This document shows, piece after piece, positions 4,048 through 22,047 of a stretch of DNA of 29,254 nucleotides. Numbering within the stretch: position 1 is the first letter of the stretch; each line of letters begins with the position of its first letter. The DNA comes from Thermoproteota archaeon (lineage in GTDB: Archaea > Korarchaeota > Korarchaeia > Korarchaeales > Korarchaeaceae). The stretch covers positions 1-29,254 of the forward strand of contig JAVCBY010000061.1 of NCBI GenBank assembly GCA_037917625.1, given 5' to 3'. Below the pieces are notes generated by a model. The model ran no database searches. It had not been told where the DNA came from and saw only the letters and a list, made by a program, of their open reading frames with translations. The translations under genes and the position numbers were made by a program.

Positions 4048-5192
4048 TGGTCAAGCTAGGGGGATCGATACTATCCTCTCCCGAGGATTTCATTAGAGCG
4101 GCCGAGGTTACGAAGCGGGATTTCGAAGCTGGAAATGAGATATTGCTCGTGGTCTCAGCTATGAAGGGCCAGACTGATCAGTTAATAGAGATGGCGAGGA
4201 AAGTTGGGGCTTCAGGAGAGCTGTTGGATGCCATAGCGGGGCTCGGAGAGGTGCTCTCAGCAAGGCTCATGGCTTCCGCCTTGAACTCGATTGGAGTCCC
4301 ATCAGTAGCGATAGACCCCTGCTCCCCGATATGTCCCATCTACACAGATGGCAGCTTCGGGGATGCGGATCCCGATATTCCAACTACATGTGGTGCAGCT
4401 ATCTCAAACATCGAGCACATGCTAGGCAAATGCGTGCCAGTAGTTTGCGGTTACGTCGGTAAGACGAGAGAAGGGAAGCTGACGACTCTAGGGAGAGGGG
4501 GAAGCGATACGACTGCTGTGATACTGGCTAGATGCCTGAGAGCCGATGAGGTAGTCCTAGTGAAGGACTCAGGGGGAATAATGAGCGCTGACCCTAAGAT
4601 AGCAGAAAATGCCCGCAAGTTGGGTAGCTTAAGCGCTGAAGAGGCTTTAACGCTTTCGATGGGAGGAGCGAAGGTCCTGCATCACAAAGCAGTGAGGTAT
4701 CTCTCCCCAACGGTTAGGATGAGAGTTCTCTCGATAGATGAGGGGAGCTTCGTCAGGGGAGGGACTATAATAAGCGGTCATATACCTGAGCTTAAGGTAG
4801 AAGTTCATGAGAAACCAGTGAGCATGGTGACTCTGATCGTAGATGGGGATCTGAATAACCTAGAGCTCAAGCCTCTATCGGAGAGCAAGCTGGACAAAGC
4901 TGTCATACTTTACTTGGATGAGCCTCCGGAGGAGGTCATCAAGAAGATACATCCGCTCGTCGAGAGAGGAATAGTGAAAGCTATTTCAGTAAAGAAAGAG
5001 CTCGCTATGATAAAAGTATGGGGAGGGGCGATAGAAGACGTCCCTGGCGTCATAAACAAGATATCCGACCCTCTGGCATCAATGGGGATAAATATACATG
5101 GTCTACAGACGGTCCATAATAAGATAGCGATTTTCGTCGATTGGAAGAGCAAGGAAATCGCTGCTTCTGAACTAAAGGCAGTCTTGGGGTGA
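4029..5192 (+). CDS. lysC: Aspartate kinase with C-terminal ACT domain
   Basis: VVKLGGS, VVSAM, GEVLSARL, TTLGRGGSDTTA, SADPK, GAKVLH motifs. Confidence 0.93.
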   Translation: MVGKRVVVKLGGSILSSPEDFIRAAEVTKRDFEAGNEILLVVSAMKGQTDQLIEMARKVGASGELLDAIAGLGEVLSARLMASALNSIGVPSVAIDPCSPICPIYTDGSFGDADPDIPTTCGAAISNIEHMLGKCVPVVCGYVGKTREGKLTTLGRGGSDTTAVILARCLRADEVVLVKDSGGIMSADPKIAENARKLGSLSAEEALTLSMGGAKVLHHKAVRYLSPTVRMRVLSIDEGSFVRGGTIISGHIPELKVEVHEKPVSMVTLIVDGDLNNLELKPLSESKLDKAVILYLDEPPEEVIKKIHPLVERGIVKAISVKKELAMIKVWGGAIEDVPGVINKISDPLASMGINIHGLQTVHNKIAIFVDWKSKEIAASELKAVLG

Positions 5193-6232
5193 TTGTATTG
5201 AAAGTAGCTATCCTAGGAGGGACAGGTGCCGTCGGCCAGAGGTTCGTCCAACTTCTAGCTGGTCATCCTTGGTTCGAGATCGAGGTGATAACGGGGAAGA
5301 CTAGCGTTGGGAAGAGGTACGGAGATGCTGTCAACTGGATCTTAGATGGTGATGTGCCGGATCGGGTCAAAGATCTAGTCATCGTGGAGACGGAATTGAG
5401 GAACTTGAAGGGAGTGGATCTGGTATTCTCATCTCTCCCCTCGGGAGAAGCTTCTATAGAGAGGGAGATAATGAACTCAGGGATGCCGCTGGTCAGTAAT
5501 TCCAGCTTCCTAAGGATGGATCCGATCGTGCCCTTGGTTGTGCCAGAGGTGAATAAGGACCATCTAGCGCTCTTAGATCTCCAGAGAGATGCTGGGATTG
5601 GGCCCACAGCTACTAGTCCTAATTGCACGACCACGATGATAGTGATTCCCCTCAAACCATTGGACGATTCTTTCTCGCTCAAGAGGTTGGATGTAGCTAG
5701 CTACCAAGCAATATCCGGCGCTGGCTATCCTGGGGTGCCATCATATGATATCGTCGATAATCTGATCCCCTTCATATCAGAGGAAGAGGAGAAAGTCGAG
5801 AGGGAATCCAAGAAGATGCTCGGGAGATTAGTAGATGGTAAAATTGAAAACGCGGATTTCGATGTTCAGGCAACTTGTGTCAGAGTTCCCGTACTGGATG
5901 GGCATACGGTAGCTATACATGTGGAGTTCGAGGAGGAAGTGGATGCGGAGGACGCTAAGAAAGTGCTTGAGAGATTCGATCCCGGCCCAGATGTCAGGAA
6001 TCTACCATCTTCCCCGGATAAGGCGATAATAGTGAGGGAGGAGAGGGACAGGCCGCAGCCTAGATACGATAGACTAGCCGGCAGAGGTATGAGCGTCTCC
6101 GTAGGTAGGATCAGGAGAGGGGCCAATAAAAGGTCACTCCTCTTCATTTCACATGGTCACAATACGATAAGGGGTGCAGCTGGAGGTGCAGTGCTCTTAG
6201 CGGAGCTCATGCATTCCAAGAAATTCATATAA
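5189..6232 (+). CDS. asd: Aspartate-semialdehyde dehydrogenase (archaeal type)
   Basis: GGTGAVGQRF, PNCTT catalytic Cys, QAISGAG, RVPVLDGH, HNTIRGAAG. Confidence 0.96.
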   Translation: MIVLKVAILGGTGAVGQRFVQLLAGHPWFEIEVITGKTSVGKRYGDAVNWILDGDVPDRVKDLVIVETELRNLKGVDLVFSSLPSGEASIEREIMNSGMPLVSNSSFLRMDPIVPLVVPEVNKDHLALLDLQRDAGIGPTATSPNCTTTMIVIPLKPLDDSFSLKRLDVASYQAISGAGYPGVPSYDIVDNLIPFISEEEEKVERESKKMLGRLVDGKIENADFDVQATCVRVPVLDGHTVAIHVEFEEEVDAEDAKKVLERFDPGPDVRNLPSSPDKAIIVREERDRPQPRYDRLAGRGMSVSVGRIRRGANKRSLLFISHGHNTIRGAAGGAVLLAELMHSKKFI

Positions 6233-10330: not shown

Positions 10331-10344
10331 GGAAAGTTTTTAAC
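10331..10344 (+). promoter_or_regulatory. BRE-TATA promoter of the nuo-like operon
   Basis: GGAAAG-TTTTTAAC about 30 bp upstream of the nuoA ATG. Confidence 0.6.
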
Positions 10345-20404: not shown

Positions 20405-20662
20405 TACGAATGTAATACCCCCTCCAATAGTTCTCTTTGCCGCGATTATACCCTCTCAGAGGGCGGCTATAAGTACCCGTCCACACCTCGTTTAGCGAGC
20501 CTGCATGTCCCTTCCTCATGATCCTCCATCTTTCTTTCGCATATTTACTTCGGCATAGCTCACATCATTTTAAAGGTTAGCAGAAGGGCTAACTCTTTGA
20601 ATCCGAGGTACTGCCACCCATGGAAAAGCTTAAGAGTCCTCTCAAATCGATCGATCGGAGGT

Positions 20663-21283
20663 ATGATGTACCTCCCGTGGAGCTACATCCATTCCTTCGA
20701 GTGTGATGCTTGCGGGATCTGTTGTTCGCACTTCTCAGTGCCCCTGAGGCCCGATGAAGCCCTAGAGATATCTAGAAAGTTCGGAAGGGATTACATAGAG
20801 ATCAGGAAGGATAGGTTCTTCCTGAAGAAGGAAGGTAGGAATTGCCCCTTCCTCTTGAGCTCCCATATGAGCCTCTGTTATCTCCAGTTGCTCGGTATAA
20901 AGCCGAGAGCGTGCAAGCTCTGGCCATTCTACATATTCAAAAACCCGGAATATGGGAGGAGGGAGGAAGCGGCTTTCTCCAATAAGCTGGGGACCTTCTA
21001 CATCTACGTAGATCCCAGATGCCCCGGGATCATTATTGGGAGGCCATCTGAGAGGCTCATAAATGCTATAGATGAGGCAGTGGAGATATGGTTAGGCCTC
21101 AGGAAGGAGCAGGTACTGACGACCTCACTTAAAGCTCTCAGGCACGTGGGGCATGAGTTAGCACCTAAGGTAACTTCAATAGAAGAATTTTTCAGAACTA
21201 CCTTTATCCATAGAATCCCAGATCCTCAAGATGAGCATACATGCGAAATCAACTCCATAAGGAAGTCCTCTCCCATCGGTTGA
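20663..21283 (+). CDS. YkgJ-family (CxxCxxCC) Zn/Fe-S cysteine-cluster protein
   Basis: FECDACGICC...CPFL...C...KPRACKLWPF...CPG; SD GGAGGT before ATG 20663; GGAAAAG-CTTAAG promoter-like element near 20622-20634. Confidence 0.85.
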   Translation: MMYLPWSYIHSFECDACGICCSHFSVPLRPDEALEISRKFGRDYIEIRKDRFFLKKEGRNCPFLLSSHMSLCYLQLLGIKPRACKLWPFYIFKNPEYGRREEAAFSNKLGTFYIYVDPRCPGIIIGRPSERLINAIDEAVEIWLGLRKEQVLTTSLKALRHVGHELAPKVTSIEEFFRTTFIHRIPDPQDEHTCEINSIRKSSPIG

Positions 21284-21290
21284 GTCGATG

Positions 21291-21304
21291 GGAAAGTTTA
21301 TTAG
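21291..21304 (+). promoter_or_regulatory. BRE-TATA promoter for the intergenic structured RNA
   Basis: GGAAAG-TTTATTA, nearly identical to the nuo promoter GGAAAG-TTTTTAA; the first T is 27 nt before the first G of the terminal stem. Confidence 0.6.
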
Positions 21305-21323
21305 GCAGCGCTTCACACTACCC

Positions 21324-21417
21324 GGGGCCGGGAGAGGGGGGATATCGGAGACCTCTGATAGCACAGCACTCTAAGGAGTTGCTGACTCCCGTATCCACGG
21401 GAACCCCCGAAAGCCCC
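21324..21417 (+). ncRNA. Candidate 94-nt structured ncRNA (four-way junction), family not recognised
   Basis: GGGGC/GCCCC and GGGGG/CCCCC closing stems enclose three hairpins (21343-60, 21364-84, 21387-402); GC-rich; upstream promoter; G-U wobble favours the + strand. Confidence 0.65.
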
Positions 21418-22047
21418 TCATATCCCCTTGAGGAGCCTCAAGTAAGTAGATGGGCTCAACTCAGTTATCCTTCCTTCGTCAACTGATGTTATGATTATCC
21501 CGTTGAGCTTACATATCTTCAATACATCCAGCGGTATCGGGGGGTTCGTGTAGTACTTATCCAGGAGTGACTTCCACTTAATCAGCTCATCCTCGCTCCT
21601 CTCATCTGGAGGCAATAAAACGAAGGGCGGTATCTCCATTAAGTATGTGGGAGGAGCAGCTAGATAAAACCTATCTGAATGGATGCTGTATCTAGCTATC
21701 TTGCTCGCTATTCTAGCTCTGCAGAAGTTATCCGGATCTAGAGCATGCTCGGGCGGGACATAACCAGTTTCCACCTCAACTATCACCTTTATATCCTTTG
21801 AACATAAGAGATCGCATTTCAGATCATCTATTGGGACCTCAACATCCACCTCATATCCCTGTGAGATGAAATGAGCTGCAACCACCATCTCCATAGCGGA
21901 GTGATTTATCTTAACTAATCCCCTCTTATGCAGACCAACGAGCTTATTTATCAAGGGATCAAGCCTGTCGCTTGGCACCACTCCCTTCTCCTCCAACTTC
22001 GAGGCGAGCTTCCTCAGATCGGATCTGAAAACTCTCTCGTTCGGCAC
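21418..22047 (-). CDS. Conserved archaeal hypothetical protein with a PD-(D/E)xK nuclease-like motif
   Basis: H..ME...HF..QGYEVDVE...KCDL...VIVEVETG pattern typical of restriction-endonuclease-fold proteins; E-x-E-T replaces E-x-K. Confidence 0.6.
   Translation of the reverse strand: MPNERVFRSDLRKLASKLEEKGVVPSDRLDPLINKLVGLHKRGLVKINHSAMEMVVAAHFISQGYEVDVEVPIDDLKCDLLCSKDIKVIVEVETGYVPPEHALDPDNFCRARIASKIARYSIHSDRFYLAAPPTYLMEIPPFVLLPPDERSEDELIKWKSLLDKYYTNPPIPLDVLKICKLNGIIITSVDEGRITELSPSTYLRLLKGI

Follow-up and report, generated by a model that had tools for sequence, protein, structure and literature searches.

Introduction

In archaea, the tRNA-splicing endonuclease (EndA) acts on bulge-helix-bulge (BHB) motifs, which PMC4090602 defines as a 4-bp helix between two 3-nt bulges, with the first two bases of the anticodon lying in the central helix. 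The known archaeal substrates, as listed in two studies, are transfer RNA (tRNA) introns, the precursors of ribosomal RNA (pre-rRNAs), one messenger RNA (mRNA) and one 5' untranslated region (UTR) (PMC7714728, PMC12558985). For the BHB stems of archaeal rRNA, the same studies document cleavage by EndA followed by ligation to a circle (PMC7714728, PMC12558985). The archaeal RNAs that they describe as circularized in a BHB-dependent manner are pre-rRNAs, tRNA introns and a single UTR intron. The mRNA substrate and the UTR substrate, the latter a BHB intron of Haloferax volcanii HVO_1309, were, according to the first study, found by circular RNA sequencing (circRNA-seq) and cut in vitro (PMC7714728). 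Here, we describe a short RNA gene in a 29,254-nt stretch of DNA, hereafter the window, that makes up positions 1 to 29,254 of contig JAVCBY010000061.1 (GenBank assembly GCA_037917625.1) from a Thermoproteota archaeon of the family Korarchaeaceae, genus Candidatus Korarchaeum. The genome is 84% complete. The ends of the predicted transcript appear to form a minimal BHB, and we put the probability that this is a stand-alone gene, flanked by a BHB, that yields a small circular RNA of four hairpins at roughly 0.5.

Like the BHB stems of archaeal 16S and 23S pre-rRNAs, the Korarchaeum RNA is predicted to pair its transcript ends, to have two opposed A-rich bulges of 3 nt placed 4 bp apart and to enclose an RNA body. 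The flanking helices are 6-23 bp long in the pre-rRNA stems but 2-6 bp here, and the enclosed body is rRNA in the former, whereas a 77-nt junction RNA is predicted from the sequence here. The pre-rRNA circle is an intermediate that is reopened, whereas the circle predicted here would be the end product, with its ligation junction made into a GNRA-capped helix. Circular tRNA introns, such as the one in tRNA-Trp that contains a box C/D RNA, are small functional RNAs freed by EndA at a BHB and then circularized, as would be the case here, and their flanking helices are equally short, like the anticodon stem. In contrast to these introns, the Korarchaeum RNA lies in neither a tRNA gene nor any other host gene and lacks C/D boxes, and its 'exons' would be an 11-nt leader and a short trailer with no evident function. 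The HVO_1309 UTR intron and the mRNA BHB are EndA substrates other than tRNA and rRNA, as is predicted for the Korarchaeum RNA, but they are introns whose loss changes a host mRNA, whereas here there is no downstream gene on the same strand. The minimum free energy (MFE) fold of the window RNA resembles RNAs with a kink-turn (K-turn) bound by L7Ae (box C/D, H/ACA, RNase P and ribosomal RNAs) in that a G.A mismatch follows a 3-nt bulge. However, A.A replaces the second A.G pair here, the bulge bases are invariant and the sister clade pairs otherwise.

Results

The initial annotation of the window had proposed that a 134-bp gap between two convergent genes encodes an independently promoted, cloverleaf-shaped RNA on the plus strand. 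The sequence and coordinates that it gave for 21324-21417 and its flanks are accurate throughout, and the gap is indeed bounded by convergent open reading frames (ORFs) at 20597-21283 (+) and 21418-22047 (-). RNAfold of 21324-21417 (+) returns exactly the four-way junction that had been drawn: a terminal stem of GGGGC/GCCCC, then an internal loop, then a G-run paired with CCCCC, and three hairpins inside (Table 1). The fold has an MFE of -43.8 kcal/mol (z -3.29), which none of 200 dinucleotide shuffles equals, and the minus strand of the same interval is unremarkable (z -1.41; 20 of 200 shuffles equally stable). The spacing from the promoter would place the 5' end of the transcript near 21324, and the 3' end probably lies at 21417, where both conservation and pairing stop.

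BLAST finds orthologues of the stretch in six other genomes of the genus, and in the three more distant of these the similarity runs from the first G of the RNA to its last C. A covariance model (CM), R1, built from the window sequence and the six orthologues (clade 1), scores 80-113 bits in seven genomes and 31 bits in an eighth, G004. In other genomes of the genus, the corresponding position downstream of homologues of the convergent 209-aa gene is taken by a larger RNA (clade 2, about 125-133 nt) that shares the promoter box, the 5' CGGGAAAGGG and the 3' CCCCCCGAAA with the clade-1 RNA. A second model, R2, scores 100-140 bits in nine genomes, the members of clade 2; it carries two mis-specified pairs (alignment columns 56-57 with 90-91) but still detects all of them. 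Together, the two models place the family in 17 of the 21 genomes of Candidatus Korarchaeum and in none of 15 genomes from the family's four remaining genera, and neither has a match at E <= 1 in five further genomes of the phylum (the model searches covered all of the 43 phylum genomes except G026 and G031). As far as sampled, the gene thus appears confined to the genus. A pattern scan of genome contigs returned four loci, namely two known members, the G004 member and one chance match in a Dehalococcoidia coding region. The corresponding scan of metagenome contigs, which covered gaps of 60-90 nt only, returned seven, of which four are near-copies of clade-1 members and three are chance matches. 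Viral contigs gave no family member and one chance match at 12 bits. The weaker R1 and R2 matches (L050-L056 and L092-L094) were rejected as coding sequence, rRNA or chance.

All 17 loci have a YTTATTA box with a purine-rich stretch ahead of it, and the box ends 24-27 nt upstream of the invariant CGGGA. In clade 1, 93.0% of alignment cells at paired positions are paired and eight pairs have changed on both sides (0/500 shuffles; 0-3 in slid controls), with the counts for hairpin B being soft because the alignment is partly out of register there. The corresponding values in clade 2 are 88.6% and 11 (0/500 shuffles; 0-5 in slid controls). They include an 11-bp hairpin in which U-A, A-U, A-U and C-G are replaced by C-G, G-C, G-C and U-A. 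The outer helix of clade 2a, YUGC/GCAR, also has one compensatory change (UUGC/GCAA versus CUGC/GCAG). Clade-1 RNAs are 91-95 nt long with indels that are not multiples of three, hence coding is unlikely. The RNA has also kept its place where the surroundings changed: an inserted PIN-domain gene separates it from the downstream gene in G001, G009, G011 and G020, and in G006 it follows the homologue of the upstream gene although the downstream gene lies on another contig. By comparison between genomes, an independent, conserved and unannotated structured RNA gene is thus highly probable, in agreement with the initial annotation.

Judged by the alignments, the three arms vary freely yet stay paired, whereas a core at the base of the terminal stem is invariant. 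Across both clades this core reads (G/U)C-CGGG-ARA-GGG(G) on the 5' side and CCC(C)-CCCG-AAA-(G/A)C on the 3' side, with arms inside it that differ in both length and sequence. The initial annotation had read the internal loop as a possible variant K-turn bound by L7Ae, and this reading does not hold up. The 1b.1n pair is G.A in every member, but 2b.2n is A.A in every member rather than the defining A.G. The CGG bulge is invariant, which is unexplained by a K-turn because a K-turn does not demand fixed bulge bases. The same bulge and loop nucleotides match a BHB point by point. The predicted motif consists of an outer helix (h), a 4-bp central helix CGGG/CCCG (H), an inner helix (h') and the bulges ARA on the 5' side (B1) and AAA on the 3' side (B2). 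The location of the first two anticodon bases inside the central helix fixes the strand order as h-H-B-h' and the cut as following the second bulge base. In clade 2, in which the 3' strand has six or seven C's, unconstrained RNAfold gives this order by itself: UUGC/GCAA, a 3' bulge AAA, the 4-bp CGGG/CCCG, a 5' bulge AAA and GGGGA/UCCCC.

A simple geometry script was used to look for BHBs in 19 family sequences (17 genomes and two metagenome contigs), and it finds the motif in the same register in 18 of them (16 of the 17 genomes and both contigs). The remaining sequence, from G004, has four C's and an h' of 1 bp, and keeps the same bulge bases. In the 18 sequences B1 is AGA, AAA or AUA and B2 is AAA, such that the middle base of B1 (G, A or U) is the only variable one of the six bulge bases, and the central helix is identical and exactly 4 bp long. 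Each bulge lies 3' of its strand's half of the central helix. The flanking helices differ between groups, with h of 4-6 bp and h' of 2-3 bp in clade 1, h of 4 bp and h' of 4-5 bp in clade 2a, and h of 2 bp and h' of 4-5 bp in clade 2b and G008. Applied as a positive control to the sequences flanking the 16S and 23S rRNA genes in a complete relative, G012, the script returned exactly one long-flanked motif for each. For 16S, this has h of 16 bp, CGUG/CACG, bulges AAU and AAG, and h' of 6 bp; for 23S, it has h of 23 bp, AGCC/GGCU, bulges AAA and AAU, and h' of 14 bp. Both rRNA motifs have the same orientation and the same A-rich bulges as the RNA family. They lie on contig C1 at approximately 1326300-1328100 (16S) and 1328170-1331750 (23S) (loci L162, L054 and L163), and the two halves of the 23S motif are about 3.5 kb apart.

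The full BHB is part of the unconstrained MFE fold in 6 of 17 sequences at 37 C and in 9 of 17 at 80 C. For all 17, the fold constrained to the BHB lies 0-3.9 kcal/mol above the MFE at 37 C and 0-1.9 kcal/mol above it at 80 C. In the BHB register of the window RNA, just 21336-21337 of the G-run pair in h', with 21404-21405.

We propose that EndA cuts after the second base of each bulge, that is, after 21334 and after 21411, and that RtcB closes the excised 21335-21411 into a 77-nt circle, with 21411 joined to 21335 (...CCCCCGAA|AGGGGG..., or ...CCCCC-GAA|A-GGGGG...). After ligation, the three C's that had been part of the central helix would re-pair with the G-run in a register shift, turning the junction into a GAAA tetraloop that caps a 5-bp G-C helix, C(GAAA)G. 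The mature RNA would then be a closed cross of four hairpins, resistant to heat and exonucleases. The predicted circle sizes are 77 nt for the window, 74-78 nt for clade 1 and 105-114 nt for the sister clade. All 18 sequences with the motif are predicted to have the junction C(GAAA)G. The window circle folds into four hairpins with a circular MFE of -30.6 kcal/mol (z -5.19; none of 200 mononucleotide shuffles reaches this value), and the clade-2a circle folds similarly, with a GAAA-capped helix of eight positions that includes one A.C mismatch. In the G008 helix at the circle junction, U/A swaps preserve pairing in the registers of both the precursor and the circle. The proposed pathway would account for three features of the core. 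The run of five G's and five C's in clade 1 would be kept because two pairs serve h' and three serve the register shift. The third base of B1 and all three bases of B2 would stay fixed. The middle base of B1 would be free to vary because it is discarded with the leader.

Both enzymes are encoded in all five genomes searched. EndA is a single ORF of about 364 aa with two PF01974 (tRNA_int_endo) domains and is, by this domain content, of the two-domain, alpha'2 type. As a side observation, RtcB matches in two pieces within a frame of 946-955 aa in G001 (C4 103314-106004) and G003 (C38 2632-5322), and the frame is 487 aa in G000 and G012, a difference suggestive of an intein-like insertion in the RtcB of one clade within the genus.

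Several observations weigh against a circular product. In the window RNA the BHB register is less stable than the MFE fold by 3.9 kcal/mol at 37 C and by 1.9 kcal/mol at 80 C, the pair probabilities of the central helix are at most 0.012, and h' is just two G-C pairs. The central helix never varies, and covariation therefore speaks neither for nor against it. The predicted BHB is canonical in form but short: its flanking helices are much shorter than those of rRNA BHBs, with an h of just 2 bp in clade 2b and G008. The G004 RNA (L040 594-686 (-)) falls below the finder's threshold for h'. The promoter, outer helix and invariant loop bases are retained there, but there are just four C's and the inner 60 nt fail to form three hairpins (z -0.87); this RNA may be a decaying copy or a third architecture. 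Loosely defined BHB-like patterns as good as the observed ones arise in mononucleotide shuffles of five sequences at rates of 0/300 (window), 9/300, 37/300, 6/300 and 32/300. Hence, the BHB signal of a single sequence is modest, and the case rests on finding the same motif in the same place while all else changes. In addition, the alpha'2 and alpha4 endonucleases of Korarchaeota are described in two papers as the strict type (PMC4090602, PMC5829648). Finally, circularity by itself implies no function.

That the gene is dedicated to the circle as its sole product, made through a minimal BHB and the G5/C5 register shift, and is thus the first stand-alone 'circRNA gene' among BHB substrates, is a tentative proposal that we rate at somewhat less than an even chance. 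Conceivable roles of the circle include a heat-stable protein scaffold or sponge. Our guess, held with low confidence, is a stable protein-binding scaffold, because the arms vary, the nucleotides next to the junction are invariant and there is no long single-stranded guide. If expressed as predicted, the gene represents a new structured RNA family in a barely studied archaeal lineage. If the BHB is real, the EndA/RtcB pathway would make a free-standing circular non-coding RNA, beyond intron removal and rRNA maturation, and the gene would be a new class of BHB substrate beside tRNA introns, pre-rRNAs and the few mRNA and UTR introns. A minimal BHB combined with a register shift that yields a GNRA-capped junction would also be a compact natural design, of relevance to circular-RNA production with archaeal BHB scaffolds. 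Such scaffolds have reportedly been used to make circular RNAs in a 2026 preprint.

Alternative explanations

A different explanation for the same core, which we consider unlikely but the best of the alternatives, is a linear, stable small RNA that acts as a ribonucleoprotein scaffold or decoy, with the invariant loop CGGGARA/GAAA binding a protein, either L7Ae through a non-standard K-turn or another. The MFE folds of the window RNA and three close relatives do keep a 7-by-4 internal loop between G-C helices, with pair probabilities of 0.87-0.97, and the loop is invariant while the arms vary. The 3-nt bulge followed by G.A also resembles a K-turn, and rare natural K-turns with A.A at 2b.2n exist. 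However, a K-turn here would have A.A at 2b.2n in all members and would leave the invariance of the CGG bulge unexplained. Moreover, the sister clade, with its six or seven C's, folds without constraint into helix-bulge-helix-bulge-helix, which leaves no G.A/A.G platform.

It is improbable, though worth weighing, that the RNA is a partner, inhibitor or substrate of the convergent 209-aa protein (21418-22047 (-)). The two occur together: all 17 genomes with the RNA have an intact 209-aa homologue, including G006, which keeps both although they are on separate contigs. Of the four genomes that lack the RNA, three lack the 209-aa gene, and in the fourth, G007, the copy is broken by stop codons and the RNA is missing from the gap. 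The structural model of the protein matches only nucleases of the restriction-endonuclease fold (Hjc, AF1548 and splicing-endonuclease subunits), although its fold Z scores are only middling. Against such a link, the protein family is large and widespread (at least 4588 proteins at E <= 1e-5) whereas the RNA is found in one genus, and two of two genomes of another korarchaeal genus and an unrelated archaeon, all with homologues of the protein, lack such an RNA both near the gene and elsewhere. Because the RNA and the gene are neighbours, both could be lost in a single deletion. A NuoD tree places two of the genomes without the RNA, G007 and G010, in a single unresolved group inside clade 2a, which implies few independent losses, and G002 is a long-branch outlier. 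Given the shared losses, the tree and the breadth of the protein family, a functional link to the 209-aa protein is therefore a minor rival to the circular RNA. Antisense control of the downstream gene was considered separately and rejected, given that the PIN-domain gene on the RNA's strand intervenes in four genomes and the two are unlinked in G006. The inserted PIN-domain gene is VapC-like, a label based on its translation as judged by eye, and the distance from the RNA to the 209-aa gene is about 0.9 kb at these loci (L065-L068, L087-L090).

The element fills the gap between two convergent genes, as might a bidirectional terminator, a GC-rich fold that arose by chance or a cis-acting element of the adjacent mRNAs. 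We regard such a non-gene origin as very improbable, given the TATA box at a fixed distance in 17 of 17 loci, the compensatory changes in the arms, the strand-specific structure, the few T-runs after the stem in clade 1 and the retention of the element both despite the PIN-gene insertion in four genomes and in G006, away from the downstream gene.

No known RNA family was matched, in line with what the initial annotation had concluded. A scan of the window against Rfam release 15 (4227 families) gave no match at the gathering score. At E <= 10 the RNA region gave a chance match only, with none to the tRNA model, and at E <= 1 eight orthologous loci gave only one chance microRNA match. ARAGORN detects no tRNA either in the window or at six orthologous loci, and the terminal stem has five pairs rather than the seven of an acceptor stem, with hairpin loops of 4 nt. 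Neither RUGAUGA nor UGAUGA occurs in 21324-21417, and CUGA occurs within hairpin stems only. Canonical signal recognition particle (SRP) RNA (RF01857) is found elsewhere in five of five genomes, and RNase P RNA (RF00373) and 5S rRNA (RF00001) are each found away from the RNA locus in four of five, the missing copies both being from the 84%-complete G000; the RNA locus itself has no Rfam match to SRP RNA, RNase P RNA or 5S rRNA. No description of the RNA was found among the literature records listed for small RNAs of Korarchaeum or Korarchaeota. R1 does align end to end with the 5' end of the G012 23S rRNA at 19.6 bits (L054 1501-1582, model positions about 43-124), and this region also has GAGGAA-GGGG ... 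CCCC-GAAU around a multi-helix junction. Mimicry of 23S rRNA was rejected, given that the genome-wide E-value is 0.38, R2 is blind to the region and the aligned P1a is no helix in the Rfam large-subunit rRNA structure. Despite the cloverleaf-like four-way junction and the weak 23S alignment, which is at chance level, a divergent member of a known family (tRNA or tRNA-like, SRP, RNase P, 5S, box C/D or H/ACA guide, ribozyme or riboswitch) is thus barely credible in the face of empty Rfam and ARAGORN results, canonical SRP, RNase P and 5S copies elsewhere, and the lack of both a RUGAUGA box and a 7-bp acceptor stem.

Locus and neighbouring genes

The features of the locus are collected in Table 1.

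Table 1 Features of the RNA gene and its predicted circular product, in window coordinates
Feature	Position	Strand	Basis or remark
B recognition element (BRE)-like purine stretch and TATA box, GGAAAG TTTATTA G	21291..21304	+	Sequence; box in 17/17 orthologous loci; candidate promoter
Predicted primary transcript, 94 nt, four-way junction RNA	21324..21417	+	Fold, BLAST limits, CM R1
Outer helix h (P1a), 5' strand GGGGC	21324..21328	+	Pairs with 21413-21417
Central helix H (4 bp) of predicted BHB, 5' strand CGGG	21329..21332	+	Pairs with 21406-21409 (CCCG)
Bulge B1 of predicted BHB, AGA	21333..21335	+	Predicted 5' cut after 21334
Predicted excised, circularized product, 77 nt, four hairpins around a junction	21335..21411	+	Prediction in its entirety
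G-run	21336..21340	+	In MFE fold, 5' strand of P1b, pairs with 21404-21408
Hairpin A	21343..21360	+	7 pairs, 93% of cells paired; one-sided changes only (G.U to A-U)
Hairpin B, with one-base bulge	21364..21384	+	Both-sided changes at 7/8 pairs, alignment partly out of register
Hairpin C	21387..21402	+	100% of cells paired; closing pair U-A, U.G or C-G
CCCCCG (C-run plus G)	21404..21409	+	P1b 3' strand; in BHB register, h' (CC) and H 3' strand (CCCG)
Bulge B2 of predicted BHB, AAA	21410..21412	+	Predicted 3' cut after 21411
Outer helix h (P1a), 3' strand GCCCC	21413..21417	+	Fold and covariation

The loop of hairpin B is UAAG in the window and GNRA-like in three relatives. The promoter sequence GGAAAGTTTATTA at 21291-21303 has one other match with at most two mismatches in the window, at 10331, before the nuo genes. 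The two agree at 11 of 13 bases, which is what the 'nearly identical' of the initial annotation amounts to. A second pairing, of 21340-52 with 21384-96, had been put forward as a sign of two possible folds. The duplex can be formed in the window RNA (-14.0 kcal/mol) and in one relative (-15.5 kcal/mol), but it is weak (-4.5 to -9.0 kcal/mol) in the other five of the seven clade-1 sequences. With strong pairing in two of the seven only, a conserved alternative fold was rejected, and a two-fold switch is unsupported.

The 209-aa ORF has no Pfam, NCBIfam or PDB sequence match. Its AlphaFold model has a mean predicted local distance difference test (pLDDT) score of 71.6 and a best Foldseek E-value of 6.5e-3, and VIA-align gives middling Z scores of 7.7 for AF1548, 7.5 for Hjc and 5.3-6.3 for splicing-endonuclease subunits. 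On this model, the protein is predicted to have a restriction-endonuclease-like core (PD-(D/E)xK, Hjc-like) preceded by an N-terminal part of three helices, and acidic residues are invariant across 15 aligned homologues. Members of this very large, so far unannotated archaeal family are about 212 aa long, with 45-52% identity in Bathyarchaeia and Nitrososphaerota.

In G007 (98% complete; contig C128, approximately 4400-5600), the homologues of both flanking genes have in-frame stops (TAG in one; TGA and TAA in the other), and the RNA gene and its promoter are missing from the gap of about 25 nt between them (L074, L075, L095). The three-gene locus seems to be decaying there, or the assembly is faulty. 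In G006 (63% complete; C91 2675-4075), a pyruvate kinase homologue with one in-frame TGA lies beside the 209-aa gene.

Upstream of the RNA, a 10-bp hairpin, TCCCATCGG...CGATGGGA, at 21271-21293 (+) covers the stop codon of the upstream ORF and reaches the BRE of the promoter. It is kept in close relatives, and a terminator scan flags it because the TATA box serves as its T-run.

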